This document shows, piece by piece, positions 3,920-58,800 of a stretch of 64,000 nucleotides of DNA (the first letter of the stretch is position 1; each line of letters begins with the position of its first letter). The position numbers and the translations under genes are program-made. Location: IMG/VR virus record IMGVR_UViG_3300043540_000465; one strand, written 5' to 3'. The notes under the pieces are model-generated. The model saw only the letters and a program-made list of their open reading frames with translations. It was not told where the DNA came from and did no database searches. Source of the stretch: an uncultured virus (IMG/VR IMGVR_UViG_3300043540_000465) (taxonomy: Duplodnaviria; Heunggongvirae; Uroviricota; Caudoviricetes).

Positions 3920-3922
3920 TCC

Positions 3923-4078: not shown

Positions 4079-4125
4079 TCGCTGTGCCGCCGCTTTCCCA
4101 CTAGACCTACTCCTATCTTTGTAGC

Positions 4126-5079: not shown

Positions 5080-5164
5080 CTCATACGTAAGGGGCTTATC
5101 TTTAGTAGGACCAGTGTACGAGCGTCCCTGAGCTGATGCTCACGCCATAGCGCGGAGGAGACCA

Positions 5165-28800: not shown

Positions 28801-30972
28801 AGCATGACGCCGGTGGTGCGTACCACTTCTTTGGCGCTTGACCTGCCGTCTCCGGTTCGTAGTAAGTACACTGCCCATGTCGAGCTCCCCCTGCGTCCTA
28901 CCACCATGACGCCGGAGCTGGCCTTTGTGCTAGGGATGGTGGTGTCGGTGGGACACCACGACCCCCATCGGGTCAGGGTGGTTAACCATGACACGGCGCT
29001 CTTGGATCGTTACGAAGACTTGGTGAAGAAGACCTTCGGGCTAACACCGACCCGCACTACCTGCTACTCGGAGGAGCGTGGATACATCCACGGCGGTACG
29101 CGAACGGCGCACACCAAGAACAGCTATGAGTCAGTCGTGGACAGCAGTGTGCTCGCAAGCTGGCTCACCTATCTCGGGGTACATTCAGGGGGAAAGCGGG
29201 GCAAAACCTCTTCCCGGTACAAGGAGGTGCCGTGGTCGATCCTCGAAGCAGACGAGTCGTCGCAGCTAGCGTATCTTGCAGCCTGCTTCGAGAGTAATGG
29301 ACATACGGCCCGCAACGGCTCGGCCCTTGCCTTCTATGCCTCATCGGCTAAAACCCTACGGCAGATGCAAATCTTGTTGGCCGCCCACGGTATTCTCAGT
29401 CGGCGGCTGCCCAAGAAGTACCACCGCTTGGAGTTGGATGCCAAGTTCTCGTGGACTCTGTATCAAAAGATCGGGCCTTACTTGGTTAGCAAGCGCGCGG
29501 CGTCCGATAAGTGGCGCACCAGCCATCATACGTTTGGCGTGCCCATCGGAGGCCTAAAGGCCGCGCTGGAGGAGCGCACGGTACTAGCGGATGCTACTGG
29601 GACGTGGTTCTTGAATGATGACGGCGTAGAAGTATATGTGCACCGCTGGAAGTCGTCACTGCAATCCGTGGGTGATAGCCTGCTGTACCAATCCTATCGG
29701 GAGGGCCGCTACACGGCCTTTATGGATCGGCTGCAATTGATCTCCCCGTTGTTGTATAAGCGCCTTCTGACCCTGTTACACTCTGAATATTACTTCGATC
29801 CCCTGAGTGCAATCAAGGATGTGGGAACGAAGAAGGTATACGATTTGACTATGGTCGAGGGGTGCGAGCCCGCCTTTGTGGCCAATGGGATAATAGTGCA
29901 CAACTCCGGCGACGCGTCGATCAACACCACCGAAGCCGCGACCTCGGTGTTCCTAGAGCGCATTCGCGCTCACCGCCGGCTGATGACCGAGCGCGTGGTC
30001 CAGCAAAAGATCTTCCGCGAGATGGCGCGCGCCAACCGTTGGGTCAAGCGCACGCCGGCGGAGATCACGCACCACGTGCGCGAAGACTCGGACGAGCAGG
30101 CGGCCCAGGACGACGATCGGCTGGCCATTCCTACCATCAACTGGACCAAGTCGCTCAAGCCCACCGCCGACGAGCAGCTGATCAACCTGCTGCGGCAGGC
30201 GCAGGAATGGGGTCTACCCATTACCATCCGTGACCTAGCTTCAGCTACCGGTATTGACATCGACGGCGTACTCAGCGATCAGACCGAAGAGGCTGAGCTA
30301 CGTACGAAGATCAAGACGTGGCAGGACACGATGCAGAAGACCGGCATCACCACCGGCGCCATGGCCCCCGGCGGTGAAGGTGGGGGTGGTATGATACCTC
30401 CGGGCGGGGGTTACGAGATGCCGGGCATGCCACCCGAGGGACCACCGGCAGGCGGTGAGGCTCCGAGTGGAGGTGAGGGCGGCGAAGCTCCGGAAGGCAT
30501 GGCAACCGCTGCCTCTTTCGGGGGCAACATCGAGGACGCGATCCAACAACGCATCGCGGCGCTGCCCATCTGGAACGACACCGGCCGCTGCATCAATGTG
30601 CATCGGGATCAGCTGCGCGAGCTACTACACCAGCCCGAGATGCAGCAGAAGCTAGCCCGGGGCATCAGCTGGCGGGCGCTGCAGAAGCACCTGCGGAATG
30701 GCTACACCTTCACCGAGCGCGAAACCGAAGTCATCGGCTACGCGTTGCACCGCGTCGGACTGGTACCCGACTTTGTAGTACCGCCAGGCTTCGCTCGCGC
30801 GGTCATGCAGAGCTGTGGCCGCGATCTGGATAACAACGCCGGGCTGCTCCGCGAGCTGCAATACATGGAGCGCTTTAGCACCGTACGTCGGCGCCTGGAC
30901 GCCGCCGGTGCTAACGCCCGCCTCAAGCGCGAATTGGCCATCCCTGGCCGCCGGCTATACACCGGTGTCTAA
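25861..30972 (+). CDS. Portal protein with 2 inteins (about 737 aa after splicing)
   Basis: Follows terL. RRIYLRDPICGPAIDF...ELP, FLVLGK and ALGINDAFL|SGDAS helical pattern; Gly/Pro/Glu-rich tail typical of portals. Confidence 0.8.
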   Translation: MALFKVSTYDGRVNPSSRRLAMEASEQRNGVAVIRRASADGSKASTGTIIKRGGVAGPASTPGGGLAAPGGLRTPSTIRNQTGNPLLDNSLVDYWIPIDPVGLHQLWRRIYLRDPICGPAIDFFRELPWSEWTLSGVDDKLLQRYDDTLHRINLLGWLPEFSGDFLVLGKGCLHLLWDRTKGEWRDLIIHDPDHIEVSIVPLVNQPIKVDLKPTPAHQAFILSPDPRDQMARKELDPNIIRMILSGEPIPLDPRNTLYLPRRAFPYDVEGVSLFCVAGSTRIPTQFGLVRVDQLPKLLRLDRQPRIRIDDERYEYETGLSLKSEVYGQRTAVTNWIYSGVRPTLQLRTELGYRLTVTPNEKVRVLNTQLELEWKRADALTVGDQLVVQPGTDTLWPEHEPRLGKFRRWVPKSNEEQDKHLARIPRRMSPSLARVLGYLVAEGHVGENHVSFTNSDEFVLQDYQTAFARVFGLDLSEKLLLADTHNQRHAEGRQGYAFKRNKDASVITCSSTELVLYLEHLGYRRGSKSAAKRVPKHLWRSTRVSVRAFLQALFEGDGSITANQVDYATRSRRLAREVQLLLLQFGIAASCRFHPVAKMWHVLLGNRGYVQFNEKIGFRSPTKLGVWTANQERIRADNNSTLYAVPGIREAVLAECEQRLVANDRIPAYATVGLPPAGGRTFLKLADGSVAASTFPMRVRHLKVTATPTNDAFMAELATISPSLHQRLIKLRDAQLVFSPVTAIKQGQVRPVYDVTVGKVHEFVANGLVISNSRTIYFIALERSLFTASILAARRRAGPVTHIAAGNEEWEPTNEELDALALAYMESEEDAVSAVFATRNDVQVNRAVSSLQADLWKINDESQFISEGKMRALGINDAFLCLPGNTLLPTLERGLIRLDSISSGQEGEAQPISLTVGSSVKAATAAKWIFNGEKPLLRLTTKHGYRIEATAQHRCLVLNDTTLETEWKQAKDIGLGERLCLSMTPVVRTTSLALDLPSPVRSKYTAHVELPLRPTTMTPELAFVLGMVVSVGHHDPHRVRVVNHDTALLDRYEDLVKKTFGLTPTRTTCYSEERGYIHGGTRTAHTKNSYESVVDSSVLASWLTYLGVHSGGKRGKTSSRYKEVPWSILEADESSQLAYLAACFESNGHTARNGSALAFYASSAKTLRQMQILLAAHGILSRRLPKKYHRLELDAKFSWTLYQKIGPYLVSKRAASDKWRTSHHTFGVPIGGLKAALEERTVLADATGTWFLNDDGVEVYVHRWKSSLQSVGDSLLYQSYREGRYTAFMDRLQLISPLLYKRLLTLLHSEYYFDPLSAIKDVGTKKVYDLTMVEGCEPAFVANGIIVHNSGDASINTTEAATSVFLERIRAHRRLMTERVVQQKIFREMARANRWVKRTPAEITHHVREDSDEQAAQDDDRLAIPTINWTKSLKPTADEQLINLLRQAQEWGLPITIRDLASATGIDIDGVLSDQTEEAELRTKIKTWQDTMQKTGITTGAMAPGGEGGGGMIPPGGGYEMPGMPPEGPPAGGEAPSGGEGGEAPEGMATAASFGGNIEDAIQQRIAALPIWNDTGRCINVHRDQLRELLHQPEMQQKLARGISWRALQKHLRNGYTFTERETEVIGYALHRVGLVPDFVVPPGFARAVMQSCGRDLDNNAGLLRELQYMERFSTVRRRLDAAGANARLKRELAIPGRRLYTGV
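26683..28173 (+). mobile_element. Intein Portal-1 (497 aa, LAGLIDADG)
   Basis: CVAGSTRI...LGYLVAEG...LFEGDG...ANGLVISN, +1 Ser. Confidence 0.9.
28498..29904 (+). mobile_element. Intein Portal-2 (469 aa, degenerate LAGLIDADG)
   Basis: CLPGNTLL...ATAQH...LGMVVSVG...CFESNG...ANGIIVHN, +1 Ser. Confidence 0.9.
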
Positions 30973-34142: not shown

Positions 34143-34651
34143 TTCGCGCCCAAGGCGCGCTGGCACCTCCGCCGCGGGTCATAACGTACCGCGGGGTGGT
34201 GTATCGTCTGCACACCGGGCTATTCGGTCTGGGCACCCCCGAGGTGCAACCGGACTGGGATGCTGCGTACCGCGCTGCGGGCGAGGTGCAGGAGCAGTCG
34301 CGCAAGTTGTATCGCGCGGCGCGGGAGCTGCAACGGCAGGTGTGGGACAGCAGACAGCTAGCGTCAAGGTACTGGGCACCCGAGTACAGCAGCTGCTGAA
34401 GCAACTCGTCGACCAGCTCAAACTGGTGTTGCAGCATACACCGTCGTAGGAGCTCGATCATAAGCACCAAGGCGCCGTTGTCGCAGGAGATGAAGGACGA
34501 CAACGAGGCCGAAGGCAAGGAGAAGTAGCCATGCGCACCACGCCCCAGCAGATCAAGTGCTGAAGGCCGCGCGGGCGATTCCTGAGCACATCATCGGCGT
34601 GTGGCTGGCACACCAGCCGCCGAAGAAGCTGGTCTAGAGAAGGAGCACACC

Positions 34652-37600
34652 ATGTTGTACGCACCGGAAGACATCCTGGCAGGACCGAGCATCCGCAAGG
34701 TCTCGGACTCCGTGGATAGCTACCACCTGTTCGCCCAGGCGGGCATGCCCGTAGTGCGCACCTTCGATCTGCACTACTTCAAGACCGAGCAGGACATGAC
34801 GGGCAACCTGCGGCTGGCCGATGCGCAGGGCTTCAAGGTGCCGTACGACCGGCCGGTGGATCTGTCGCGGCTCAAGATCGCGGCCGAGACCTACAACATC
34901 AGCCCCGACTACCGGGACTACATCGCGTCCGAAGTACCCATCGTCACCGCCGACGTTCCTAATCGTAACATGGATTGTCTGGTGGGTAGTTCGCTAGTGC
35001 CAACGGATGTGGGGTTGGTGCCGTTGCGCGACATTCCGCAGTCGGGGGCCAAGTACGTGCTGACCCCTGACGGGCCGTGCAAGATCCACAACTGGAGGCG
35101 CGTCGGCTACCTACCCACCGTCAAAGTCACCCTGCGCGACGGTCGTACGTTGCAGGGCACGGCCGACCACGAAGTGCTAGCGGTGGACCGAGCCACGTTG
35201 GCAGCGGTATGGCGCCCACTGGGCGAGCTGTCACCCAGCGATTGCGTGATCTGCATGACGGGCACCAACTTTGAGGCGGCCGCTCCGCTGCCGCCCACCC
35301 CGCGGGCGGAGCAGTTCTTGGCAGTGGCGCTGGAGGCACGTGACGATCAACGTTACAGTCGAACCATCAACGAGATCACCACGCCGCCGACCATGACCGC
35401 GGAGTTGGCGCGGCTGTTGGGCTACCTGGTGGCTGAGGGTACGGTCACGCACGCCAACACCGTCACCTTCTCCAACAATGACCCCGCCCTGCTAGACGAC
35501 TTCTGTCACTGTTGGCAAGTCACGTTCGGGCTGACCATCGCGCCGACATACGAGAGCAATTCGGGTGGCTACGCTTACGGCAGTAGCGTGCTGGCGCGAC
35601 AATGGTTGGCCGCGCTGGGGCTGGGCTACCAGCGGGCCGCGAAGAAGCGCGTGCCGTGGGCCGTACTGCGGTCGAGCAAGCGTATGATGGGAGAGTTCCT
35701 GCGCGCCTACCTCGCGGGTGATGGCTGTGTCGGTCACGATACCGTGATTATGACATCGGCGTCGGCCCGGCTGTTGCGGCAACTGCAGTACTTGCTGCTG
35801 GGTTTGGGCGTACACACCACGTTTTCACGAGAGAAAGCTGCGGGTAAGCGGGTCATCCGCGGCCAGGAGTACGAGTGCCGCGCGATGTGGCGTCTGGCGG
35901 TGGGGCGTACGGCCGCCGCCAAGCTGCTAGAGCAGATCGGTGCCCTGCCCGGCGCCAAGGGTCAGCTAACTGTGAGTGGTGCCACGAACGTAGACCGTCA
36001 CGAAGTGGTGCCGTTTGCTAAGGAGGCCCTGCAGCAGTTGGTGGCCGATCGACGCGCAGAACGCGATGGCCCACGTGGCCCCTACCAGTACCGCACTGAT
36101 AAGGGAAAAATGGTCGCGGCCTATCTCTCCCCCGGCGCTATGGGCGACCATGTGCACAAGAGTGACCTGCTGCCGGAGCTGCTGGATAGTATCACTAAGA
36201 TCGATACTGAGCTAGGACATAATCTAGCGTTTCTGTGTCGTGACGACGTGTTTGCCGGTGAGGTGGTGGCCGTTGACCGCGCCGGTGACGAGTGGGTGTA
36301 CGACATCGGTGTGGAGCAGGCACATCGTTTCATCGCCAATGGCGTGGTAGTCCACAACTGTTTCTCGTTCTCCGAACTTTCCTTCTACAACCCACTGTAC
36401 GGCTGCTGCTCATACCAGACGTTCGTGGGCAAGGGCGTGCACCTGCAGCACGACAACCAGGATCCGAAGAAGGCCAAGGGCATCATCCTCGATGCCGCCA
36501 TGCGCAAGGTGGGGCACAACTGGCACGTGATGATCCTGCTAGCGTGCGACCGCACCAAGGATCGCCAGCTGGTCGAGGAGATCGTCCGCTCGCCGATCAA
36601 CGGGTGGTGCTTGACCGCGGGTACGCTGGTGTCTACCTCGAAGGGGCTAGTGCCCATCGAAAGCCTAGGGCACGGGCGTAAGCTGCGGCACGCGATGCCG
36701 GTGGAGGGGGTTACTGTTGACACCCCCAACGGTCCGGGTCGGGTAACGCACTGGTACTACTCCGGCCGCAAGTCCGTGATCGAGCTGCAAACCAAGCCCG
36801 GATTTGCGGTCCGCGGCTCGACCAACCAGATGGCGTTGATACTTCGACCCAACTTGACAACCGAATGGGTCGAGTTCAAAGACGTCACGCCCGGCATGTA
36901 TATGGCCTTAGCGTCAGAACCGGCCCACGCCTGGCCAGAGAAGCTGTCGCTGCCGTCCGTAGAAGTCAAAGAAGACACGGTAGAATACCGGGAGCCGATT
37001 CGGTGTCGACTGTGCCACACTGACTGTCTGAGTCTCAGCTCGCATGTACGCTACACGCACTTGACTTCAGTGGACGACTACCGCCGCCGGTTCCGTTACG
37101 ACGGACCGATGGCCGCCTACACGATCCGCAACTCTCGGCCTAAGCCAGTGACTCTACCGACGGAGATGACGCCCGCCCTAGCTACGGTGCTGGGTTACTT
37201 GGCCGCTGAGGGCGGAGTCTACCGGATCAAGGGCTACCGCATGACGAGCTTGAGCAACACGGATGAGGCCATCGTCAGCGACTACAGTGACGCCTTTGAG
37301 CAGTGTTTTGGCAGTGCGCCCATCGTTAATTGGACGGCTCGTGGCGCGGGTGACCACATCAATGGCGTTCGCGTTAAGAGCCGCAAGCCTCTGGCTAACG
37401 TCTACTTCCACAGCGAGACGGTGGCCGAGTTCCTGACTCAGATCGCAGGAGAGTGCGTGACCCACGACTCTCACCACAAAGAGGTGCCGTGGGCCATTTT
37501 GCAGGCGCCCCGTGCTAGTGCCGCGGCCTTCTTGCGTGCGCTGTATCTAGGAGACGGTAGCGGGCGGTTCCGTTCCGGCAGTCTGGTTCGCAGCATCACG

Positions 37601-39694
37601 CTACATTCGTCCTCGCTGAGTATGCGGCAGCAGGTGCAGTTGCTGTTACTGCGCTTTGGGATCCGTAGTCGCATCACCGACTACGATGAGCGTTATCCCG
37701 ATCTGGTGGTTTCTGACACCCGCAGCATGGTACGCTTCATGCGTGAGATCATGGGCGAGGCGGGCTTCGAGCTGGACTACGAGGAGAGGGTTGACCGACT
37801 TCCCTACTTCCGGAGCAACGTTCTTGGAGTAACTGAAGACCTCTTGCCCCCGTGTGGTGGCCAGCCGTCAGCCTCCTGGCTGCGGAGTGGCGCTGGCAAG
37901 GAACTGCTCGCTACCCTAGAGGACAAACAACAGCGAGATCTGCGACGACTGCTGGCGCTCAAGTGTGAGTGGGTCGAGGTCACGGCCGTAGACGAGTGCG
38001 GGGAAGAGGAGACTTTTGACCTGACAGTTGCGGGGGCCGAGGGGCCGCTCAGTGATCCCTCCTGTTTCCCGGCCAACGGACTCTATTGTCACAACAGCAT
38101 GGGCGCGCTGGTCTCGTACACCACCTGTCTGACTGGTAGCACGCTAGTAGCTACCACCCGGGGTTTGATTCGACTCGACCAGCTGGATCAGTATGCTGGT
38201 AGAGTACGGGTGCCTACCAGCTACGGCAGCACCCGCCTGCTGGCGTGGAAGTACCAGGGCGTCAAGGACGTGCATCAGGTCACTACGTCGATGGGTTACC
38301 GTCTCAACGGCACGGGCGATCATCGCGTGCGGGTGGTCAATCCTGATCTGACGCTGGGCTTCAAGCAGATCGGTGACCTCCAGTCGGGCGATTGGTTGGT
38401 GCTGCGTAAGGGCGGTACGCCGGAACACCGGCACGTTAGCTTGAAGCGGGCGGCGCGGAAGGTGACCGCCACGCTGACTGGCCGCGAGCGCGGTAGCGAA
38501 CGACAAGACCTACGCTTGCCGGAGCACATGACACCGGAGTTGGCGGCCATCCTCGGCTACCTGGGCGCGAAAGGTCACCTGCGACGCGAGTTGCTGGTGT
38601 TCACCAACACGGACGGCGATTACAACCGCGAGTTCGTCGCCCACTGCGAGTCGGTGTTCGGCCTCACGCCCCGCGCTTACAGCGCCGACAAGCTCCAGAT
38701 CAGTCGCACCGCGCTGATGCAGTTCCTCCGCGCCATCGGCCTCGCACGGGTCAAGTCGATGCACAAGCGGGTGCCGTGGTCGGTACTGCGTGCTGACCGG
38801 GCCTGTCAGCTGGCCTACCTACGTGCGTACATCAATGGTGACGGTCATCTGCCGCAGCACGCACGTACCGTGAGCATCTCCTCCAAGTCAGAGGGGATGA
38901 TCCGTGATCTCCAGACGATGATGCTAGCGTTGGGCTACGTCAGCTATGTACGCCAGCAAGGCGAGACGCACGGGGCGGTGCCGACTCCCATGTGGCACGT
39001 CTACGTGTACGGTCGGGACGCCGTGGAGTTGGCGGCGGAACTCAACTACCAAGCCACCGACATCTGGGCGGAGCAGTTCGAGCAGGACATCACGCCCAAG
39101 TTGGAGGTGGTGCCCTACTCAGCACAGATCGTCGACCAGCTACGGCAAGACAAGCTGGTGGCCGGTAACTGTTCGTACGCCTGCGCTGATGGTAGTGTGC
39201 AGCGCCTCTGCTTCCAACCCACTACGACGGGCGGCAACCGCTATAAGGGCTCGCGGCGCGGTAACGACTGGACTCGGCGCAACCTCCAGCAGATCCTGCC
39301 GTCGGTTGCTGCTTGCGATCCCGAAGTAGCCGAGCGGTTGCGCGGGTTGCTCGACCGTCGGTTGGTTTTCGACCGGGTGGACACACGGTTGATCACCGGG
39401 CAGGAGAAGGTCTACGACGTAATGGTAGCGGAGAATGGCCACGAGCCAGAGTTCACGGCCGCCGGCTTCGTGGTGCACAACTGCTCCGTGTGCGGCTTCC
39501 GCTCCAACGGTAAGGTGTTCTGTGAACCACACATCGGCCGCAACGGGTCGAAGAAGGGCCGCATCTTCGACGGCCGCATCGCCTACGAGCGCTGCCATCT
39601 CGTCAACTTTATCGAGACCAGCAAGGTCAAGAACCCCGCTGACATCAACGCATATAGTGAGGAAAAGCTTTTCTTGGCGTATTTTACGGGATAG
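34652..39694 (+). CDS. Prohead maturation protease with 3 inteins (about 271 aa after splicing)
   Basis: Spliced extein reads VPNRNMD|CF...LQHD...GIILDA...GW|SMGALVSYTT|CSVCG...VNFIETSKVKNPAD, with His and SMG Ser as in HK97/assemblin-like proteases. AAGGAG RBS before ATG 34652; lies between portal and capsid. Confidence 0.8.
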   Translation: MLYAPEDILAGPSIRKVSDSVDSYHLFAQAGMPVVRTFDLHYFKTEQDMTGNLRLADAQGFKVPYDRPVDLSRLKIAAETYNISPDYRDYIASEVPIVTADVPNRNMDCLVGSSLVPTDVGLVPLRDIPQSGAKYVLTPDGPCKIHNWRRVGYLPTVKVTLRDGRTLQGTADHEVLAVDRATLAAVWRPLGELSPSDCVICMTGTNFEAAAPLPPTPRAEQFLAVALEARDDQRYSRTINEITTPPTMTAELARLLGYLVAEGTVTHANTVTFSNNDPALLDDFCHCWQVTFGLTIAPTYESNSGGYAYGSSVLARQWLAALGLGYQRAAKKRVPWAVLRSSKRMMGEFLRAYLAGDGCVGHDTVIMTSASARLLRQLQYLLLGLGVHTTFSREKAAGKRVIRGQEYECRAMWRLAVGRTAAAKLLEQIGALPGAKGQLTVSGATNVDRHEVVPFAKEALQQLVADRRAERDGPRGPYQYRTDKGKMVAAYLSPGAMGDHVHKSDLLPELLDSITKIDTELGHNLAFLCRDDVFAGEVVAVDRAGDEWVYDIGVEQAHRFIANGVVVHNCFSFSELSFYNPLYGCCSYQTFVGKGVHLQHDNQDPKKAKGIILDAAMRKVGHNWHVMILLACDRTKDRQLVEEIVRSPINGWCLTAGTLVSTSKGLVPIESLGHGRKLRHAMPVEGVTVDTPNGPGRVTHWYYSGRKSVIELQTKPGFAVRGSTNQMALILRPNLTTEWVEFKDVTPGMYMALASEPAHAWPEKLSLPSVEVKEDTVEYREPIRCRLCHTDCLSLSSHVRYTHLTSVDDYRRRFRYDGPMAAYTIRNSRPKPVTLPTEMTPALATVLGYLAAEGGVYRIKGYRMTSLSNTDEAIVSDYSDAFEQCFGSAPIVNWTARGAGDHINGVRVKSRKPLANVYFHSETVAEFLTQIAGECVTHDSHHKEVPWAILQAPRASAAAFLRALYLGDGSGRFRSGSLVRSITLHSSSLSMRQQVQLLLLRFGIRSRITDYDERYPDLVVSDTRSMVRFMREIMGEAGFELDYEERVDRLPYFRSNVLGVTEDLLPPCGGQPSASWLRSGAGKELLATLEDKQQRDLRRLLALKCEWVEVTAVDECGEEETFDLTVAGAEGPLSDPSCFPANGLYCHNSMGALVSYTTCLTGSTLVATTRGLIRLDQLDQYAGRVRVPTSYGSTRLLAWKYQGVKDVHQVTTSMGYRLNGTGDHRVRVVNPDLTLGFKQIGDLQSGDWLVLRKGGTPEHRHVSLKRAARKVTATLTGRERGSERQDLRLPEHMTPELAAILGYLGAKGHLRRELLVFTNTDGDYNREFVAHCESVFGLTPRAYSADKLQISRTALMQFLRAIGLARVKSMHKRVPWSVLRADRACQLAYLRAYINGDGHLPQHARTVSISSKSEGMIRDLQTMMLALGYVSYVRQQGETHGAVPTPMWHVYVYGRDAVELAAELNYQATDIWAEQFEQDITPKLEVVPYSAQIVDQLRQDKLVAGNCSYACADGSVQRLCFQPTTTGGNRYKGSRRGNDWTRRNLQQILPSVAACDPEVAERLRGLLDRRLVFDRVDTRLITGQEKVYDVMVAENGHEPEFTAAGFVVHNCSVCGFRSNGKVFCEPHIGRNGSKKGRIFDGRIAYERCHLVNFIETSKVKNPADINAYSEEKLFLAYFTG
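34976..36358 (+). mobile_element. Intein Prot-1 (461 aa, LAGLIDADG)
   Basis: CLVGSSLV...GTADH...LGYLVAEG...YLAGDG...ANGVVVHN, +1 Cys. Confidence 0.92.
36608..38095 (+). mobile_element. Intein Prot-2 (496 aa, LAGLIDADG plus C2H2 zinc-finger insert)
   Basis: CLTAGTLV...CRLC..SHVRYTH...LGYLAAEG...LYLGDG...ANGLYCHN, +1 Ser of SMG. Confidence 0.9.
38126..39481 (+). mobile_element. Intein Prot-3 (452 aa)
   Basis: CLTGSTLV...GTGDH...LGYLGAKG...YINGDG...AAGFVVHN, +1 Cys of CSVC. Confidence 0.92.
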
Positions 39695-41975: not shown

Positions 41976-42734
41976 ATGCTGAATCAAGCTGGGAAGAACA
42001 TCTTTTCGGTGATGCAGGAGCTGCCGCTCTCCGCGGGAGTATCCGAGGTGTTCGAGGGCATGGCCCTCGTCGCCGACAACACCGGAACCGAGGTCTACGC
42101 CAAGCCGTCCACCGGCGCCAAGGGTGAGCAGTTCCTGGGCGTCGCGTTGATCAACGCGCTGAAGGTGGTGGACCTGCCCATCGTCGAATCGCTCATCGCG
42201 GTTCTGCAGCCGCCGGCTGGCCCCAACACGCAGGTCACGCTCAGCCGCTCGCCTACGGGCGCGCCGCCAGAGCTGACCGGCTACGTGGGGACGCCCGCCA
42301 CCGTCGTCACCTTCACCCTGATCTCGGGCACCACCTACCAGACCGATCTCGCTGGCCCAATTCCGGTGCCGGCGGGTACGACGGTGGTGTGCTCGTACAC
42401 CTACAAGCCGACCCTGGCTGAGGTGCTGGCGGTGTTCCACCAGAGCGCCATCAACTTCGAGAACGTCAACGCGCTGCTGTCGCAGATCAGCGTGGGTGGT
42501 GGCGTCAACTCGGAGTTCCAGACCATGCAGTACATCAACACCCCGGGCGTCAACTACACGCTCGGCGGCCCGGTGTACCTGGGACCGAACGGCAAGTTCT
42601 CGGCAGACCCCGGCAGCGCTCCGGCGACGATGGTGGGCATCTGCACCAAGCTGCCGACCCCGTCCACCACGCCGCTGGCGCTCAGCGATGATCGCTACCT
42701 CGGGGTGAAGGTCACCGACGGGATGGGTCCGTAA
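41976..42734 (+). CDS. Head decoration / capsid-associated protein
   Basis: Immediately upstream of MCP. EGMALV...FLGVA...YTLGGPVYLGPNGKF...VGIC...LGV pattern; GGAGG RBS before ATG 41976. Confidence 0.65.
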   Translation: MLNQAGKNIFSVMQELPLSAGVSEVFEGMALVADNTGTEVYAKPSTGAKGEQFLGVALINALKVVDLPIVESLIAVLQPPAGPNTQVTLSRSPTGAPPELTGYVGTPATVVTFTLISGTTYQTDLAGPIPVPAGTTVVCSYTYKPTLAEVLAVFHQSAINFENVNALLSQISVGGGVNSEFQTMQYINTPGVNYTLGGPVYLGPNGKFSADPGSAPATMVGICTKLPTPSTTPLALSDDRYLGVKVTDGMGP

Positions 42735-42754
42735 CGCGAGCTTGGGACAAGGAG

Positions 42755-43894
42755 ATGATGATGAGCTACCAAGTGACTCCCGTAACCAAGAAGAACCTCC
42801 CGGCCCGCCCGATGGCGGCCTCCTTCAATCCCCGCTCCGGGTCGTTCAAGACCTCGGAGCGCGAGCCTGCGTGGAACGACGCCGGCGAGTTCAACGCCAG
42901 CTCCAAGCAGGAGCTGACCACACGCATCGCGCAGATGATCGATGCCTTCCAGAAGGGTGAGCTGAAGACGGCGCATACCGAGGTGGGCGAGCAGGATGAG
43001 GCGCAGCTGCGCGCCGCGGATCTGCAGGAAGCGTACCACGACCCAACCGGGCAGAAGATGAAGGTGCTCGGTGACACCGTGGTTGAGGAGCTGGTCGAAG
43101 TCGGCAAGCGTGAGGGCTTCACGCGCACCCTGTGGGGTGTGCAGCGCGTGCCGCAGGGCCAGGATGGCAAAGTCCGCATCCGCTACAAGCAGGCCGTCGC
43201 CATCATCGCCACTTCCGCCACCACCGTGCGCGCGGTGCGGTGGAAGGAGCGCTACATCCGGCCGCCGGTGTACTACCTCAACGCCAACCTCCTGATCGAG
43301 GACGTCGAGGTTCGCCTCTCCCCCGTAGGCATCATGGAGGAGATGTTCGAGGACGGCCTGGAAGCGCTGATGGTCACCGAGGACAGGCTGTCGATCAAGT
43401 TCCTCAACGCGCTGAACGGCGTCTTCAACGTGCCCATCGGCATTCCCGGCCAGCTGTCGCCAGAGATCTGGGCACGCCTCAAGTCGGGCATCGAAGGCTT
43501 CGGGAACCCCGCGGCCACCGCGTTGATGTCGTACGACTTCTGGCCGGACATCCACGCCAGCACGTCGTTCACCGGCGGCGCCACGGGCGGCGGATACTTC
43601 GATCCGGTCACTAGGTACCAGTTGGTGCTGGAAGGCCGCCTCGGCAGCCTCATGGGCGTCAACATCATCACCGACGCGTTCCGCGAGCCGAAGCTGCGCG
43701 TTCTCACCGAGGGCCAGATCTACATGGTGGCCCCGCCGAACGTCCTGGGCGTCATCACGCAGCACCAGGAGCTGACGCCGTATCAGGTCGACCTGCGCAA
43801 CCAGGGCCAGCCGGTGCAGGGCTGGTTCCTCGAACAACTCCAGGGTCAAATTTGTCAAAATCCGCGCGCCGTGTTTGCGGCGTATCGCGTGTAA
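42755..43894 (+). CDS. Major capsid protein, unspliced form; spliced form joins 42755..43846 to 44200..44247
   Basis: About 379 aa with AAGGAG RBS and strong codon bias. EALMVTEDR, GRLGSLMGVNIITD, GQIYMVAPP and GWFLEQ...NPRAV are HK97-fold-like motifs; head-module context. Confidence 0.85.
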   Translation: MMMSYQVTPVTKKNLPARPMAASFNPRSGSFKTSEREPAWNDAGEFNASSKQELTTRIAQMIDAFQKGELKTAHTEVGEQDEAQLRAADLQEAYHDPTGQKMKVLGDTVVEELVEVGKREGFTRTLWGVQRVPQGQDGKVRIRYKQAVAIIATSATTVRAVRWKERYIRPPVYYLNANLLIEDVEVRLSPVGIMEEMFEDGLEALMVTEDRLSIKFLNALNGVFNVPIGIPGQLSPEIWARLKSGIEGFGNPAATALMSYDFWPDIHASTSFTGGATGGGYFDPVTRYQLVLEGRLGSLMGVNIITDAFREPKLRVLTEGQIYMVAPPNVLGVITQHQELTPYQVDLRNQGQPVQGWFLEQLQGQICQNPRAVFAAYRV

Positions 43895-44199
43895 TGACAT
43901 ACGGCTCCTTTGCGGAGTAATCCGTAAAGCAAACTCGGTGAATTGCTGGAACACCCTGAGAGCCATGAACGCGACAACGCAGCCCGCAAGGGCCAACGTG
44001 AACGCTAAAAAGTTCATGGATTGGGCAATCAGCAGCCAAGCGACCTGGCAACAGGCCGAAGGTTCAACGACTAGAGCGCAAGCTCGTAGGACTCAAGTGA
44101 GTCCGAAGTGCCGAGGCACCCAAAGTGGTGCAAGATATAGTCTCTCCTGCAGCGAAAGTTGCAGAGCCGTTATGGCCACGATAACGGCGTAAGACAGAG
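43847..44199 (+). ncRNA. Group I self-splicing intron (353 nt, no endonuclease ORF) in the MCP gene
   Basis: P AATTGCTGGAA (43941), Q AATCAGCAGCC (~44027), R GTTCAACGACTA (44062), S AAGATATAGTCT (44132). P2 hairpin with GTAA loop, P3 CTCGGTG/TGCCGAG, P7.1/P7.2, P8, P9 with GAAA loop. Upstream exon ends in T and the intron ends in G. Confidence 0.92.
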
Positions 44200-44247
44200 C
44201 AGGTAGCGCAGAATCCGCGCGCGGTCTACGCGGCGTTCCGTGTCTAG
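44200..44247 (+). CDS. MCP exon 2 (QVAQNPRAVYAAFRV*)
   Basis: In frame after splicing at GGT|...G|CAG; aligns without gaps to the intron-encoded tail. Confidence 0.88.
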   Translation, partial: QVAQNPRAVYAAFRV

Positions 44248-44289
44248 CTGACGCGACTGTAGTCCCAACTTTACCTCACTGCCTTACCC

Positions 44290-44328
44290 CCGCAGCCGAG
44301 TACTTGGCGTACTCGGCTGCGGTTGTTT
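44290..44328 (+). terminator. Intrinsic terminator-like hairpin downstream of MCP exon 2
   Basis: Perfect 14 bp stem CCGCAGCCGAGTAC-ttggc-GTACTCGGCTGCGG followed by TTGTTT. Confidence 0.75.
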
Positions 44329-44454
44329 CGACCCTATCTTTGAAGCATGGCACGGCTATCGGTGAGCACAACCTGCTGGGCCTCAGCGCCGCGCACGGCA
44401 CGCTCCTGTGCTTCCCCGGCGTGATGGGTACCGGCGCCCCGCAGGTCGTAGCCC

Positions 44455-44697
44455 ATGGCATGGCCGCCCCAGATCGCGGCGGTCGTGCCGCTACACGCCC
44501 AGGTGGTAGTAGCCCGGGAGGTGGTACCTGATGCGTTCGCGTGGCCCCGCGCTCAAGAACTACTCTGGCTGCTCACCCAGCGCGAGATACTAGTGCTGCT
44601 AAAGACCACCACGGGAAAGCGCTACTTTCTCGGGCCACAAGCCGAGATTGTAGTATTACAGGCCGCGTTGCAACGCTATCAACACGACGCGATCTAG
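44455..44697 (+). CDS. Hypothetical small protein
   Basis: 80 aa ORF with weak support. Confidence 0.4.
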   Translation: MAWPPQIAAVVPLHAQVVVAREVVPDAFAWPRAQELLWLLTQREILVLLKTTTGKRYFLGPQAEIVVLQAALQRYQHDAI

Positions 44698-44715
44698 CAC
44701 CGTATCTTTAGTGCA

Positions 44716-44826
44716 GTGTTTGATCCCACCGGCCTCAAGCTAATGCTGTGCTTCAGTGCCCCGGTAATGGTACTGGGCGTACTGGTATGGAGGCGGCACT
44801 GGTGGGAACATCGGCCACGACACTAG
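44716..44826 (+). CDS. Putative leaderless small membrane peptide (36 aa)
   Basis: GTG 6 nt after TATCTTT; hydrophobic LMLCFSAPVMVLGVLVW followed by a basic tail. Confidence 0.35.
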   Translation: MFDPTGLKLMLCFSAPVMVLGVLVWRRHWWEHRPRH

Positions 44827-46625: not shown

Positions 46626-47348
46626 ATGTTACCCCTCTACCTCAACTATGGTGGAGAACGCTACGTGCTGGCGGCAGCACGCAAGCTAGTGCCCGCCATC
46701 AAGCTCAAAGACTCACAGGGCCAGCCCATCAACCGTAAGGTAATGGTCTCGCCAGCGACCCTGCAAGCCCATCCCGAAATGTACCGCTTGCGCAGTCTGA
46801 GTTGGGGCGATCTGCACGGTTATGCACAGAGTCACGATGAGCACAAGCAGCTGGAGGCGTTGCAGCACAAGGAAGTGCACCAGCATGCCGACACCAACGG
46901 TACGACACCGTTGCACACCCTCGCTAAGTCGTCTAGCCGCAAAGTGCGCACTAAGGTCATCGCCCATCCCTATGCCCATCGGGTGAAGGACTATCGTGGC
47001 CAGACGCCGCTGCACCATGCGGTGTCGACCGCCGAACCTGCAGTAGAACGCGCAGCGCTGCAGCATCCGCAAGTGGGCCGGGTGCAAGACAATGAAGGCC
47101 GCACGCCACTGCACCTCATGGCCGCACGCCCCCATCGGCCAAGTCTGCAGCGCCACCTACTCCAGCACCGGGACATCAGTCACATTGCCGACAACCGCGG
47201 CAACACGCCGCTGCACAACCTAGCCCGTAGTGCTACCGGCAAGGTGCTGCGGGACATCGTGCAGCACCCGGCAGCCAAGCGCAAGCGCAACGCGGCCGGG
47301 CTCACCGCCGCGGACATCGCCCAGCAGTCACTCGCCCGAGGCGGGTAG
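46626..47348 (+). CDS. Ankyrin-repeat protein with shared leader
   Basis: Four G-x-TPLH repeats plus terminal GLTAADIA; AGGAG RBS. Confidence 0.85.
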   Translation: MLPLYLNYGGERYVLAAARKLVPAIKLKDSQGQPINRKVMVSPATLQAHPEMYRLRSLSWGDLHGYAQSHDEHKQLEALQHKEVHQHADTNGTTPLHTLAKSSSRKVRTKVIAHPYAHRVKDYRGQTPLHHAVSTAEPAVERAALQHPQVGRVQDNEGRTPLHLMAARPHRPSLQRHLLQHRDISHIADNRGNTPLHNLARSATGKVLRDIVQHPAAKRKRNAAGLTAADIAQQSLARGG

Positions 47349-52701: not shown

Positions 52702-52961
52702 CCAGCGAGGTAGCAGTCACAACACCTACTACGCTTACCACCACAGCTACGGAACCGGTACCCGAAGTTGCGGTACCTGCTGAAACCATCCCCACCTTCG
52801 CCACCCCGCCCGGCGTCTCCGCCGAGTAGTTCACCAGCGCCACGCTCCCGCGGCTGCGCTGTGCGCGACTTGACGGCCGCGCAGTTTCATGCTATATTTG
52901 TGTCGAAGCTGTAAGCAGCGTGGCGCCAAAACCGGCAGTTACAGCTTCCCAGGAGAGGATT

Positions 52962-55900
52962 ATGTCCGAGTACCTGTTTAAGACCAGTCAAGGTGACTTC
53001 TTCGCGGTCGAACCTGTGGATCACCGCGAGGAAGCGGCAGCCGCCGAGAAGGTGTACGCCGCGGAATGGACCCGGTACCTCGCGGGTGACATTCCTATGC
53101 CACACCACCCCTACGAGCGGCGCATCTCGTATCTGAACCCCGGCCGGGAGATGATCTACTACACCAAGGGTGACGTGCTCAATGGCGTGCCCATCCCCGC
53201 CAAGCGCGTGACGCGGCTACTGCGCGACGCCAGCCCCTTGAACGATCGCGACATTCGCGACATCCTGGAACTGCCACGATACTACGTCGAGCAGCTGTAC
53301 GACTCGCGCATTCTCACCGACGAGGAGTACAACGAGGTCTACGACTGGGCGTACAAGGAGCGCATGCGGCGGGCGCTGCCTGGTACCGGTTTCCCCCTGT
53401 ACTTCTACGGCCTGCATCGACTCTTCAAGAAGTTCATCGACGGCAAACTGGACCTGATGCGGCAGCAGTACTCCGATGGCACCTACTCGTGGATGATGTT
53501 CCTCGATCCGGTGCCGCATGCGTCGGCAGCCGAGGCCGCGTTCACCGGCAAGGTGAAGAAGAAGCAGCGGGAGAAGTTCCAAGAAATCATCGAGGATTCC
53601 AGCGGCGTTCCCCAGGATTACGTGCGCTACTGCGTGGCCCAGCAGTACGGGGCCAAGTTCGCCGAGATCACCGCGCGGATCGATGCCAAGGTCGCGGCCA
53701 TTGCCAACGCTAAGCCCGAGGACTGTCCGCTCATCCCCAACACCTCCAGCAAGGAAGAGTTGTACACGCACCAGGCACTGGCGCTGGCGAAGCTGCACCC
53801 CAAGGGACCAGACGGCAAGCGTATCGACGTGGATGAGGCGGTCATCGACATCGACGTTGGCGGCGGCAAGCTGCGCATCCTGGTGTACGATGCGTTGCTG
53901 TGCATCAAGGAAGGGCGCTGCAAGCGACCGTTGCTGGTCATGCCTAACTCCACTATCGCGCAGCAAAAGGACGAGATCGAGAGGTTCACGGGCCGTAAGA
54001 TGAAGCAGCTGGCCGACGGTGTCAGCAAGAAGATGGTGCGGCCTCCCAAGGTCAACGTGGTGGTGATCAACACCGACACGTTCCAGAAGTACGGCCTCAA
54101 GTACTGGGGCCACGGGGGCGAAGAGGCGGGCCGCAAGCGGTTCGAAGAGATCGCCAACGCGATGCCGCCCAATACCATCTACATCACCAGCTACGACTGG
54201 CTGCGGATGGGCGGCGAAGACGAGCCCGAGGGCGCGCCGATCGGCGAGATGGTAAAACAGTACCAGCGAGATTCGGACGGAAATCTGGAGATAGACGAGC
54301 AGGGCAATCCCAAGGAGATCAAGGCCGCGGTCAAGGTGATCACGCGGTACCCGCGGGCCGAGTGGCTCATCGATGCACTGGGCATCGATTACGTGGCGCT
54401 CGATGAGAGTCACCTTATCAAGAACCGCTCGTCAGCTACCGGCAACGTAGCGCTGCATCTGGGCAACGTCAAGATCAAGCGCATCGCCACTGGTACCATC
54501 ACTCCCAACCAGCCCGAAGACCTGTGGCGCCAGTACGCGTTCGTGGATCCGGGCCTGTTCCGCAAGTACTCCGACTTCCTAGCAGCCTACGGCAACGAGA
54601 CCGACGAGCAGGGCAAGGTGCTCAAGTGGAAACGCACCGCCCTGTCGGAGATCCGGCAGAAGATGATCAAGCACGGCGCGGTTATGTACCGCCGCGCTAC
54701 GTGGAAGCACCGCCTGCCGAAGAAGACCGAGACCTTCCACCAGGTGCAGCTGAACGATAACCAGCAAGCGGTGTACAAAGCCATCATCCTCGACCTGCAG
54801 CAGGAGATCGAGAACAACCCCACGCTCAAGGCGGAGTGGGAGAAGTTCCAGCAGGATCCCAACGCGATGCGCGACGTCGAGGCCAAGCACATCCTGGTCA
54901 AGCTGTCGCGGCTGGACTCGTTCCTCACCGCCATGGGTCAGGACACGGGCGATCTGGACGAGATCACCATCGTCGATGAAGAGGGCAAGGAACAGAAAGT
55001 CGAGACCAACCGCAAGTTCGTGCAGACGCTGCAGGGCGAGGACAAGGTTAGTCCCAAGTCCGCCGCCATCGACAAGATCCTGGATGGCCACTTTGCCAAC
55101 CCGAAGAACGGCAAGGTGGTGGTGTTCGTGCAGAACGAGATATCGTGCCAGCACTTGTACGACAACAGCAAGTACAAGGACAAGGCTGGCTGGTTCATGA
55201 AGTCGCCCCAGCTGCGACCGGTAGATGAGGCCCAAACCAACCTGAAGCGCTGGGAAAACCCTGACGACAAGGGCCTGCTAGTGCTGTTCGCAGTCGACAA
55301 GTCGCTGCGCACGGGTCGCAACTTCCAGAAGGTGTGCAACCGCGTCATCCATGCGGACTGCCTGTGGGACCCAGGTAATATGGATCAGCGTATCGGCCGC
55401 ATCGAAAGGCCGAAGTCGCCGTTCGGTGAGGGACCGCAGGCGGATCCCGGCATCTTCGTAGACTGGGTGGTCACCAACAACACCGCAGAGACCACCAAGT
55501 TCGCGCGCCTGCTCAGCAAGGTGGCCATCGTCGCCCAGGTGAACAGCGGCTTCGAAACCGATACTGAATGGACGCCGATCACCATGAACCCCATCAACAT
55601 GGGGATGATCGTGAACGAGGATCAGACGCCACCGCCGCCGTTCATCTCCTGGGATACCATCGCCGCGCACCGCACGCTGCCCCCCGCCATAGCAGTGCAC
55701 GAAGACAAGACCGGCGCTGAGTTCCGCGCCACGTACGGCACGGCGGATTACAAGCGGCAAGATCCCGAGCTTATCCATAAGTCACAGCCGGTGCATACGC
55801 CGAAATTGAATACCGAGCGCGTCGCGTACGAAAAGGAAGAGATCGGTACGCCGATCAAGGTGGATGCCAAGGGTGAGGTAATCGATGCGGAGCCGGAGCA

Positions 55901-57071
55901 GGAGCCTACGGTTGAGGACATCCGCAAGAAGAAAGCCCCCGGCCCGACGGTGCGCATCGATCACAAGCTGAAGGGTGGCAAGCCCATCCTGGAGATCAGC
56001 CACCCGCAGTCCATCAAGAACCTCGACCCAGATCACATCAAGGAGCTGGGGTTCAAGTACACCAAGATCAAGGGGCAGAAGGTGCTGTTCGTGCACCGCA
56101 GTTCGAACCTGCACCTGAAGCGCATCATCCAAGCGCTGCGCGACCACGGCTACCGGGTGGACTACCAGCACTCCAAGGCGGTACCGCACGTGGATACCAT
56201 CAAGGATCCGCGCGCGGCCAAGGAAGAGGCGCCTCCCAAGCCGCAGCCCGAGCGTGAGCGGGTGCGCAAGCCCAAGCCGGAAGAGAACGAGGGCGGGCCG
56301 GAGTTGGAGCGCGAAGAAGGTGCCCCGCGGCCCCCGAAGCGCAAGCCGCAGGAGGACGAGGACGAGGACGTTATCACCTTGGACGATGTGGAGGAAGCGG
56401 CCAAGCCTCCGGTGTCGCTGGATGCCGTGATGATCAACGACGCCATGTTCTATCGGCTGCGAGAGCCCAAGGGTGAGCTAGAGAGCGAGTTGGCGGCGCT
56501 AGGCTTCCGCCCCGAGCGCCCGCACTACTACGCGCCGCTGCGGTCGTGGCAACAGGCGCTGTTCCTGATCAGCCGCATCAAGAAGCTAGGCATCACCATC
56601 GAGGACGAGGCCGACGTGGTCAAGGCTATCAAGAATCGCGCCGTGCCGCTGATCAAGCCCAAGGGCGGCTTCAGCGAACTGGAGATCGACAAGCGGCTGC
56701 CGAAGAAGAGGGTGCGGGGCACCATCACCCTGTACTTCGCCAAGATCGACGGCGAACCCAACCTGGGAGTCACCGACCGCGAGAACACCGTGGATCTGAG
56801 TATGCTGCGCGCCCTGGGCTTCAGGCCGGCCGAGCGGTCGTACTTCTGGCGGCGCATGCAGCAGAAGGGTGACCTGCTGGTGATTCTGAAGCGCATGCTG
56901 GTGGCCGGGTTCAAGATCAAGAACTGGGAGAAGCTGTCAACGGTACTGCGCTCCGTCTTCAAGGTGTCGACGGCGGGGTTGGAGGGGTTGGAGTACACCG
57001 AAGAGAAGGACCAGCCGCGCAAGAAGCGGCGGGCCTCGCTTACTGCCGCCGCGTTTCGTACGTGGCTCTAG
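52962..57071 (+). CDS. SNF2/SF2 helicase-like ATPase with atypical Walker A and C-terminal repeats
   Basis: YTHQ, DVGGGKLR, LLVMP, TSYD, LDESH, ATGT..PNQPEDLW, KVVVF, TGRNFQ, WDPGNMDQRIGRIER. AGGAGAGG RBS before ATG 52962 (alternative start GTG 52920). Confidence 0.85.
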   Translation: MSEYLFKTSQGDFFAVEPVDHREEAAAAEKVYAAEWTRYLAGDIPMPHHPYERRISYLNPGREMIYYTKGDVLNGVPIPAKRVTRLLRDASPLNDRDIRDILELPRYYVEQLYDSRILTDEEYNEVYDWAYKERMRRALPGTGFPLYFYGLHRLFKKFIDGKLDLMRQQYSDGTYSWMMFLDPVPHASAAEAAFTGKVKKKQREKFQEIIEDSSGVPQDYVRYCVAQQYGAKFAEITARIDAKVAAIANAKPEDCPLIPNTSSKEELYTHQALALAKLHPKGPDGKRIDVDEAVIDIDVGGGKLRILVYDALLCIKEGRCKRPLLVMPNSTIAQQKDEIERFTGRKMKQLADGVSKKMVRPPKVNVVVINTDTFQKYGLKYWGHGGEEAGRKRFEEIANAMPPNTIYITSYDWLRMGGEDEPEGAPIGEMVKQYQRDSDGNLEIDEQGNPKEIKAAVKVITRYPRAEWLIDALGIDYVALDESHLIKNRSSATGNVALHLGNVKIKRIATGTITPNQPEDLWRQYAFVDPGLFRKYSDFLAAYGNETDEQGKVLKWKRTALSEIRQKMIKHGAVMYRRATWKHRLPKKTETFHQVQLNDNQQAVYKAIILDLQQEIENNPTLKAEWEKFQQDPNAMRDVEAKHILVKLSRLDSFLTAMGQDTGDLDEITIVDEEGKEQKVETNRKFVQTLQGEDKVSPKSAAIDKILDGHFANPKNGKVVVFVQNEISCQHLYDNSKYKDKAGWFMKSPQLRPVDEAQTNLKRWENPDDKGLLVLFAVDKSLRTGRNFQKVCNRVIHADCLWDPGNMDQRIGRIERPKSPFGEGPQADPGIFVDWVVTNNTAETTKFARLLSKVAIVAQVNSGFETDTEWTPITMNPINMGMIVNEDQTPPPPFISWDTIAAHRTLPPAIAVHEDKTGAEFRATYGTADYKRQDPELIHKSQPVHTPKLNTERVAYEKEEIGTPIKVDAKGEVIDAEPEQEPTVEDIRKKKAPGPTVRIDHKLKGGKPILEISHPQSIKNLDPDHIKELGFKYTKIKGQKVLFVHRSSNLHLKRIIQALRDHGYRVDYQHSKAVPHVDTIKDPRAAKEEAPPKPQPERERVRKPKPEENEGGPELEREEGAPRPPKRKPQEDEDEDVITLDDVEEAAKPPVSLDAVMINDAMFYRLREPKGELESELAALGFRPERPHYYAPLRSWQQALFLISRIKKLGITIEDEADVVKAIKNRAVPLIKPKGGFSELEIDKRLPKKRVRGTITLYFAKIDGEPNLGVTDRENTVDLSMLRALGFRPAERSYFWRRMQQKGDLLVILKRMLVAGFKIKNWEKLSTVLRSVFKVSTAGLEGLEYTEEKDQPRKKRRASLTAAAFRTWL

Positions 57072-58251: not shown

Positions 58252-58800
58252 ATGCACTCAGTAGCTGCCAAACAACGATGGCAGCGCGTCCGCCGCGCCC
58301 GGCGCAAGCACAACTTTGCGCGCAAGATGGAGGCTGCGCAGGCGCGCAACCGCGCGCGCACGGCACTGGAGACACAGGGCTACACCGCCGTCGACTTCGA
58401 CTGGCTGGGTACCTACAATCCCCGCTGGGCACGCATCCGCTACTTCATCCTCAAGCGCGATCGCGGCGAATGTCAGAGCTGCACGGCCCACGCGTGCGGC
58501 GCCAAGTTCCCCATGCATTGCCATCACATCGTGCCCCGCCGCTATCCCGGCGGCACCGAGCGGGCTGACAACCTCATCACCCTATGCCCCAAATGTCACA
58601 AGCTGGTCGACGTCGCCATCTGGGACATCATCGAACGCCAGCATAGCCGGCGCACGCTAACCCCCGCGAAAATTCAGCAGCTGTGCCAAGACGTACTGCT
58701 CCGCGTAGCTAGCGCCCACTGCAGCCCCTATCTCGATACCATCGCCCGCTTGTGTCACCGCGATCGGGGCCAACCTCAAGCCACGGTCGCGCTGTACTAG
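58252..58800 (+). CDS. HNH endonuclease
   Basis: W..IR..ILKRD..CQSC...HHIVP....GG.....NLITLCPKCH. Confidence 0.88.
   Translation: MHSVAAKQRWQRVRRARRKHNFARKMEAAQARNRARTALETQGYTAVDFDWLGTYNPRWARIRYFILKRDRGECQSCTAHACGAKFPMHCHHIVPRRYPGGTERADNLITLCPKCHKLVDVAIWDIIERQHSRRTLTPAKIQQLCQDVLLRVASAHCSPYLDTIARLCHRDRGQPQATVALY

Follow-up and report, generated by a model that had tools for sequence, protein, structure and literature searches.

Group I introns are textbook elements that are harmless to the genes they interrupt only through splicing themselves out. The locus considered here raises the question of what to make of an intron that carries, in its own first codons, a copy of the protein ending it cuts off. 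It lies in a stretch of 64,000 nucleotides (nt) from an uncultured virus of the Caudoviricetes (IMG/VR record IMGVR_UViG_3300043540_000465), called the window over its full 64 kilobases (kb), and the run metadata for the sample holding the sequence describe a hot-spring metagenome. The major capsid protein gene of this large phage carries what its sequence identifies as a group I intron, which separates codons 364 and 365 (a phase-0 position) and opens with a recoded version of the last 15 codons and stop of the gene. As was proposed in a preliminary description made from the letters of the window alone, spliced and unspliced RNA are each predicted to encode a full-length capsid protein of 379 residues, and this proposal holds now that the borders of the intron have been fixed by an intron-less allele. 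The reading favored here, at a probability of roughly 0.6, is that a mobile group I intron lacking an endonuclease brought a foreign replacement C-terminus into the gene by conversion, and that this foreign ending cancels the cost of incomplete splicing.

The interrupted gene (all coordinates are those of the window, + strand) is called as an open reading frame (ORF) of 379 amino acids at 42755-43894 that ends in the intron-borne stop. In a profile search, its residues 43-375 matched phrog_2522, 'major head protein' (E 2.7e-43), while tblastn aligned about 90% of its length with annotated major capsid or head proteins of PaBG and of Erwinia and Burkholderia jumbo phages at about 30% identity. 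An AlphaFold model with a mean predicted local distance difference test (pLDDT) of 68.6 was paired by Foldseek with the shells of HK97, T5, and encapsulin at a probability of 1.0, and the product is an HK97-fold major capsid protein. The same protein is recorded on a 153-kb contig in a protein collection. Exon 1, assigned on the profile, tblastn, and fold evidence, spans 42755..43846 (codons 1-364) and ends ...LEQLQG at a phase-0 junction. Residues 355-367 and 373-378 are modeled as confident β-strands of the HK97-like fold (pLDDT 84-88), and N369, P370, R371, and R378 are invariant among 17 capsid homologs; because these terminal strands are confident and the four residues invariant, a capsid protein deprived of its last residues would probably fail or be harmed.

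Identification of the intron rests on a match to Rfam family RF00028 at 43891-44164, which reaches 70 bits (gathering threshold 50; E 1e-15) and covers model positions 1-253 of 253; it is the sole Rfam match within the window. This covariance-model check bears out the earlier claim of a canonical group I core within 43847-44199. The borders are set by intron-less alleles and not by P1, the helix that pairs the 5' splice site. A relative, recorded as L001 on a viral contig and as L039 in a metagenome collection, has a capsid protein 97% identical and DNA 94.3% identical over 3.5 kb, lacks exactly the 353 nt at 43847-44199, and reads ...CTGCAGGGT/CAGGTGGCGCAG... (the slash marking the junction), with no Rfam match there. 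The splice junction proposed in the preliminary description, CAGGGT/CAGGTA, is the sequence of this intron-less allele. As the insert and exon 2 both start with CA, three offsets of the insert are possible, and 43847-44199 is the only one with U before the insert and G (G44199) at its end, both of which group I introns require. An intron of 353 nt without an ORF of its own is the outcome. Runs X2-X24 also contain small shares of the words of the window, and three of them (X2, X6, and X10) were compared, with no habitat claim drawn; these three show either intron-less alleles or unrelated introns having the P6-P7 region in common. In contigs of X2 (freshwater) and X6 (wetland), which belong to two separate studies, 43846 is followed directly by 44200 and the 353 nt are skipped; because these are DNA runs, the junctions represent intron-less alleles and not splicing. 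Among the runs listed, the locus occurs in no RNA run, the single one having 0.04 of the words.

The first 48 nt of the intron (43847..43894) continue the frame of exon 1 through 15 codons, QICQNPRAVFAAYRV, to a UAA stop, and exon 2 (44200..44247), which follows the terminal G, reads QVAQNPRAVYAAFRV to a UAG stop. The two tails, as had been noticed earlier, are equal in length and identical at 11/15 residues. At the nucleotide level they differ at 16/48 positions, and 10 of the 15 differences among the 45 coding nt fall at third codon positions (33% divergence). When 15 random substitutions were simulated 200,000 times, at least 11/15 residues were kept with no premature stop at P = 0.00025, and a comparison of the exon tail with every 15-residue word of the six-frame translation of the window gave 7/15 identities for the runner-up. 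A translated-similarity test against shuffles, which gave 63 observed and a shuffle maximum of 61, is uninformative in DNA this rich in GC. The simulation shows the spare copy to have diverged under selection for its peptide, and to this extent the earlier suggestion of protein-level selection stands. The peptide may, however, have been selected in the ordinary gene end of a donor phage, before it became part of the intron, as a single intron-bearing allele does not separate the two histories. The copy nevertheless keeps its frame, length, and stop together with all family-invariant residues, and it may be maintained by selection where it now lies.

The comparison with intron-less homologs that had been proposed for finding the ancestral tail points to the downstream one. 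Exon 2 is identical to L001 at 45/48 nt and the spare copy at 32/48, which is about the level (30/48) at which the tails of a clade with approximately 64% amino-acid identity match L001. The GC content at third codon positions is 0.53 in the spare copy, 0.80 in exon 2, and 1.0 in L001. The peptide of exon 2 was found in 8 of the 10 other members of the cluster of close proteins, counting the protein of L001 itself; of other close proteins, those of the 91%-identical clade (P0001, P0017, and P0018) end QVAQNPRAVFAAFRV and P0002 ends TVAQNPRAVYAAFRA, and among close proteins the intron-borne ending occurs solely in the window's own, P0022. Exon 2 is accordingly taken as the native ending and the spare copy as foreign, as judged from these comparisons.

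A trace of how the foreign sequence arrived is visible on its 5' side. Exon 1 and L001 differ at 36/1090 nt, and five of these differences, all synonymous, are clustered at 43829..43840, a tract with the codons CTC GAA CAA CTC whose end is 6 nt short of the insertion. Of the 1079 stretches of 12 nt examined in the gene, no other has as many as five differences, and the 126 nt that precede the tract have none; exon 2 has three further synonymous differences from L001. The cluster looks like a co-conversion tract, as expected of homing from a diverged intron-bearing allele.

The ribozyme itself seems not to have brought the copy as an ancestral trait. Related introns of public phages share the common core alone (query positions ~82-318, ~70% identity) and interrupt genes for RNA polymerase, terminase, and ribonucleotide reductase, or mid-capsid sites, far from gene ends. 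From 15 IMG/VR loci and PAP02, ten related introns with both core motifs were obtained, five loci being without the P7 3' motif and L083 giving no pair; none of the ten (0/10) has a stop-anchored copy of its downstream ending, the best score being 0.3 versus 4.6 for the window. The spare ending is, on this comparison, not a characteristic of the ribozyme lineage. In L004, a capsid relative at 35% identity, a P7 motif (GATATAGTC) occurs at ~5537 (+), about 2 kb downstream of the capsid gene, and may mark an intron in another gene.

The anatomy of the intron is that of a complete group I ribozyme. The 5' strand of P1, GGGU/C at 43843..43847 with the splice-site U at 43846, pairs with 43903-43907 in both the minimum free energy and the centroid structures, including the wobble U43846·G43904. 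The opposing strand, GGCUC at 43903..43907, is the internal guide sequence and directly abuts P2, a hairpin of 9 base pairs (bp) with a GUAA loop at 43908..43929; the relatives in alignment A4 also show a P2 element, with GNRA-type loops. The core, P3-P9, occupies 43891..44164 in the Rfam alignment, and its helices could be read from the sequence: complementary P3 strands (CUCGGU/GCCGAG), a perfectly complementary P7 (GACUA/UAGUC, 44069-73/44138-42), P7.1 (GAGC-GCAA-GCUC, 44074-85), P7.2 (GGACUC-AAGU-GAGUCC, 44089-104), P8 (44116-31), and P9 with a GAAA loop (44147-64). A further 8-bp hairpin follows P9 ahead of the last 11 nt of the intron. The extra helices P7.1 and P7.2 define subgroup IA, and their presence between P7 and the 3' strand of P3 suggests that the capsid intron belongs there. 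The ribozyme is presumed to splice.

Between the two strands of P1, a distal hairpin (43853..43899) arises from the spare ending and 5 nt beyond its stop when 43847-43902 is folded with RNAfold. UGUCA at 43853-57 pairs with UGACA at 43895-99 around a CG-rich inner stem, as in the extended P1/L1 hairpin described earlier, and the folding energy is -20.2 kcal/mol (z -2.24), or -23.9 kcal/mol (z -2.3) with the P1 stem included. Both copies of the ending have the same four bases, TGAC, directly behind the stop, and the duplicated unit looks like a self-contained hairpin with its ends brought together, suited to a P1 loop. The idea that the spare ending represents a large insertion in a once-small P1 loop was dropped, as relatives also have ~45-60 nt between exon 1 and P3.

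Transcription is predicted to continue past both endings. A terminator-like hairpin of 14 bp (10 GC) with a U-rich tail, conserved in L001, lies after exon 2 at 44290..44322, where the preliminary description had also placed the terminator; it is the only strong such site on the + strand in 42600-44600, and in the scan of this region the interval from the spare stop to exon 2 was free of terminators.

Given these features, the following course of events is proposed. The source of the intron would have been a diverged capsid allele that already had it, from which gene conversion brought it into the present gene, with foreign versions of the 15 displaced codons and of the stop contained in its distal P1 hairpin. 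Transcripts would then extend across the intron as far as the terminator (44290-44322), and the outcome for each transcript would depend on which machinery reached P1 first. If the ribozyme acts first, splicing would restore the native ending QVAQNPRAVYAAFRV in the mRNA; if ribosomes arrive first, P1 would be unwound, the spare ending QICQNPRAVFAAYRV translated, and synthesis terminated at UAA 43892-94. With the usual ribosome footprint, a ribosome terminating at this stop would cover the guide sequence at 43903-07, and ribosomes passing P1 would often block recognition of the splice site. The copy would most likely serve to offset what incomplete splicing costs a late gene under very heavy translation, and both forms of the capsid protein may be made and assembled. 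Its synonymous recoding may in addition keep the direct repeats too unlike to recombine and delete the intron; such recombination should be hindered because the repeats are identical for at most 11 bases running. That bacterial group I introns have early in-frame stops, and that ribosomes and intron folding influence one another, is treated as established in the parts of the literature consulted (PMC3984707).

A number of observations weigh against this proposal. P1 is short, comprising three exon base pairs and a U·G wobble, and an equally good cryptic P1 is available upstream, in which GGGCU at 43819-43823 pairs with the guide 43903-43907 (U43823·G43903). P10, in which the guide pairs with the first bases of exon 2, is weak or marginal, with only C44200-G43903 and a bulged 3-bp option (-2.5 kcal/mol). 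The z-scores of the hairpins are modest (-2.2 to -3.8), and the native tail with its downstream nt also folds, into a similar hairpin of -23.4 kcal/mol; the hairpin of the spare copy may have been simply inherited rather than shaped for P1. Just one intron-bearing allele was found, in 1/11 close proteins, and two tails occur in 1/65 sequences, a total made up of the window and of 64 loci, some of them the same contig more than once, drawn from protein and alignment searches of viral, metagenome, and genome contig collections. A scan of viral and genome contig collections with the spare peptide in degenerate back-translation yielded 0 matches, and an exact scan for the junction of spare stop, guide, and P2 likewise gave 0 matches. 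Finally, the intron has no evident means of mobility, for the ORFs overlapping it have no Pfam endonuclease domain, and no homing endonuclease lies in or beside it, the nearest HNH ORFs being ~14 kb away.

Two side observations touch on these points. Pairing at the cryptic U43823 would move the 5' splice site by 23 nt, to a position upstream of the one assigned, and would shift the reading frame. The free-standing HNH endonuclease ORFs (PF01844) of the window, at 58252-58800 (+) and 62728-63318 (+), the second of which also has a NUMOD3 motif, are located ~14-19 kb from the intron and are possible trans-acting nucleases for an intron with no endonuclease of its own. The phage also encodes many LAGLIDADG inteins, none of which is beside the capsid gene.

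A more ambitious form of the proposal, which is advanced only tentatively, would have the arrangement be an adaptive and recurrent design. Heavy ribosome traffic would make complete splicing impossible, and a recoded last exon held in the P1 loop would make insertion cost-free and let selfish introns colonize the ends of capsid genes. The stop would park a terminating ribosome on the guide sequence, translation and splicing would compete on each transcript, virions would be mosaics of the two endings, and the recoding would itself have been selected against repeat recombination.

Among explanations that dispense with one or other part of the conversion-and-buffering proposal, the one that survives best, although it is considered unlikely, holds that the ribozyme has been stranded. 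The element would then be a replacement-C-terminus cassette, the protein ending QICQNPRAVFAAYRV the sole product, splicing lost or rare, and exon 2 a displaced, untranslated relic, comparable to those of the atp6 and cox2 hybrids in fungal mitochondria. A complete protein made from unspliced RNA would leave little pressure to keep splicing; the weakness of P1 and P10 is in keeping with this, as is the likelihood, inferred from the usual footprint, that a ribosome terminating on UAA 43892-94 would sit over the guide at 43903-07. The layout also resembles that of mobile-ORF gene hybrids, in which a diverged C-terminus is inserted in phase and the native one pushed downstream (PMC3630166, as far as consulted). 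Loss of splicing is harder to reconcile with a ribozyme that scores 20 bits over the Rfam threshold with all core helices intact, with the U and terminal G exactly at the ends of the insert, and with an exon 2 that is intact, in frame, and as in L001 at 45/48 nt, although an insertion as recent-looking as this one might hide decay.

Less probable still is that the copy is a neutral hitchhiker, an irrelevant leftover of the origin or movement of the element that folds within P1 while splicing is fast and complete. Other phage capsid-gene introns splice efficiently with no copy, as described for LittleE in the portions of the source consulted (PMC3706429), and since the native tail already forms a hairpin, a copy of it could occupy the P1 loop at no cost. 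Against this stands the retention of frame, length, stop, and family-invariant residues despite 33% nucleotide divergence.

The preliminary description had also raised the possibility of a switch between two C-termini, in which the efficiency of splicing, responding for example to temperature, GTP level, or translation rate, would tune the proportions of two functionally different proteins. Two distinct endings are indeed encoded, and in a phage from a hot-spring sample the folding of the ribozyme could depend on temperature. The endings differ by V to I, A to C, Y to F, and F to Y, reading from native to spare, which are conservative changes; all of them except A to C, which is unique in the family, are natural at those positions in relatives. 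The UGU codon introduced by the A to C change is part of UGUCA, the pairing partner of the UGACA that directly follows the stop, which accounts for the cysteine in terms of RNA. Because three of the four changes are natural in relatives and the Cys codon serves RNA pairing, a functional difference between the two capsid endings is unlikely. The second isoform would moreover appear dispensable, given that 9/10 close alleles and the relative's own gene are without the intron, and a regulated switch is accordingly regarded as highly improbable. The Phe and Tyr residues are swapped between the endings (F10/Y13 at 43874-43885 versus Y10/F13 at 44227-44238), and this swap makes the tryptic peptides AVFAAYR and AVYAAFR isobaric, which matters for mass spectrometry; ...QICQNPR and ...QVAQNPR are of unequal mass.

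An assembly artifact or chimera giving a false duplication, for which the presence of the intron-bearing form in one sample only might be cited, can be set aside, as 43600-44400 is matched base for base by a separately assembled Logan contig from run X1 (62,869 nt, word depth 245), tails differing at 16/48 nt cannot be a collapsed or duplicated repeat, and the insert has exact intron borders. Since X1 is probably the source sample, this contig confirms the assembly and not an independent occurrence.

The closest known counterparts to the arrangement are the fungal mitochondrial mobile-ORF (mORF) 'gene hybrids' reported for atp6 of Allomyces macrogynus and for atp6, atp9, cox2, and nad3 of Glomus (PMC3630166, consulted in part). 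In the Glomus hybrids, the native C-terminus is 91-98% and the inserted one 64-81% identical to relatives (PMC3630166), and in Endoconidiophora partial C-terminal duplications of cob and atp6 lie beside endonuclease ORFs (PMC6279837, likewise consulted in part). As in the hybrids, a diverged in-phase C-terminus has been inserted into the capsid gene, with the native one pushed downstream and closer to relatives (PMC3630166). In contrast to the hybrids, no endonuclease gene is present in the capsid insert, which is a complete group I intron in its own right, with splice sites that fall exactly at its two ends; the native capsid ending would thereby be restorable at the RNA level, and the host is a phage capsid gene rather than a mitochondrial one.

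The other comparison is with phage introns proper. In some phage and bacterial group I introns, among them those of T4 td, nrdB, and nrdD, an in-frame stop lies just within the intron, and the product of the unspliced RNA is truncated and useless. The capsid intron shares with T4-type introns its probable membership of subgroup IA, the lack or small size of an ORF, its location in a phage protein gene, the predicted translation into P1, and the early stop, and in T4-type introns too the position of ribosomes is thought to affect folding (PMC3984707, in the parts consulted). It is unlike them in that the 15 codons before its stop rebuild the missing C-terminus. Introns of this class have been reported from capsid genes of mycobacteriophage LittleE and lactococcal phage Tuc2009 (PMC3706429) and of crAss-like phages (PMC7886860). 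Like these, the present intron interrupts the most highly expressed late gene, has U before it and G at its end, and was recognized by comparison with intron-less relatives. In the portions of those reports consulted, no copy of the downstream exon is mentioned (PMC3706429, PMC7886860), and the LittleE intron differs further in lying near the N-terminus and carrying a LAGLIDADG gene (PMC3706429). Finally, 'core creep', as described in the accounts partly consulted, also involves intron sequence translated as a continuation of exon 1 after insertion in phase 0, except that it extends an endonuclease or maturase ORF, whereas the translated segment of the capsid intron encodes host protein sequence.

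In the literature searched, and as far as its sources were consulted, no group I intron was described with a copy of its own downstream exon (including PMC3706429, PMC3984707, PMC6279837, PMC8393795, PMC7886860, and PMC3630166). The earlier statement that no equivalent was known can therefore be kept for group I introns in this literature; as a claim about the general principle it goes too far, given the fungal hybrids (PMC3630166). Capsid introns, early stops, core creep, and replacement-C-terminus cassettes are all known, and what would be new is a translated intron segment that rebuilds the host protein. Re-encoding the part of the protein that is cut off would be a second, independent way for an intron to be harmless, and it would connect work on self-splicing introns with work on cassettes in which an endonuclease travels together with a replacement gene end, two fields so far kept apart. 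The persistence of introns in phage genes of the highest expression, where transcription and translation are coupled, would become easier to understand, and capsids composed of two protein variants are predicted. For annotation, the lesson is that gene callers give the intron-borne ending, as they did for P0022, while the intron and the ending native to the gene are overlooked. With intron-less alleles ~94% identical in DNA available for direct comparison, the locus is also an unusually clean natural test case.

The surroundings of the capsid gene are those of a head module rich in selfish elements. A scaffold-like ORF and a structural-protein ORF lie 5' of it, and the terminase, portal, and head protease genes lie farther 5'. 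The last three are swollen by LAGLIDADG inteins, with up to four matched stretches of Intein_splicing plus LAGLIDADG_3 per protein: the terminase large subunit (17984-25051, +) reaches 2355 amino acids, the portal protein (25861-30972, +) 1703, and the head maturation protease (34601-39694, +) 1697. Most of the head-module genes identified in the window thus hold a selfish element, be it an intein or, in the capsid gene, the intron.

On the 3' side, the intron-less relative L039 has, right after the capsid terminator, three ORFs (in its positions 3736-6090) of 342, 224, and 164 amino acids with no Pfam family, the last of which matches phrog_9155. The window retains just two fragments of them, at 44349-44471 and 44463-44733, and in comparison with L039 about 2 kb is absent beside the intron-bearing capsid gene. 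Farther downstream, the window encodes an ankyrin-repeat protein of 240 amino acids (46626-47348, +) and a SNF2-family helicase of 1383 amino acids (52920-57071, +).

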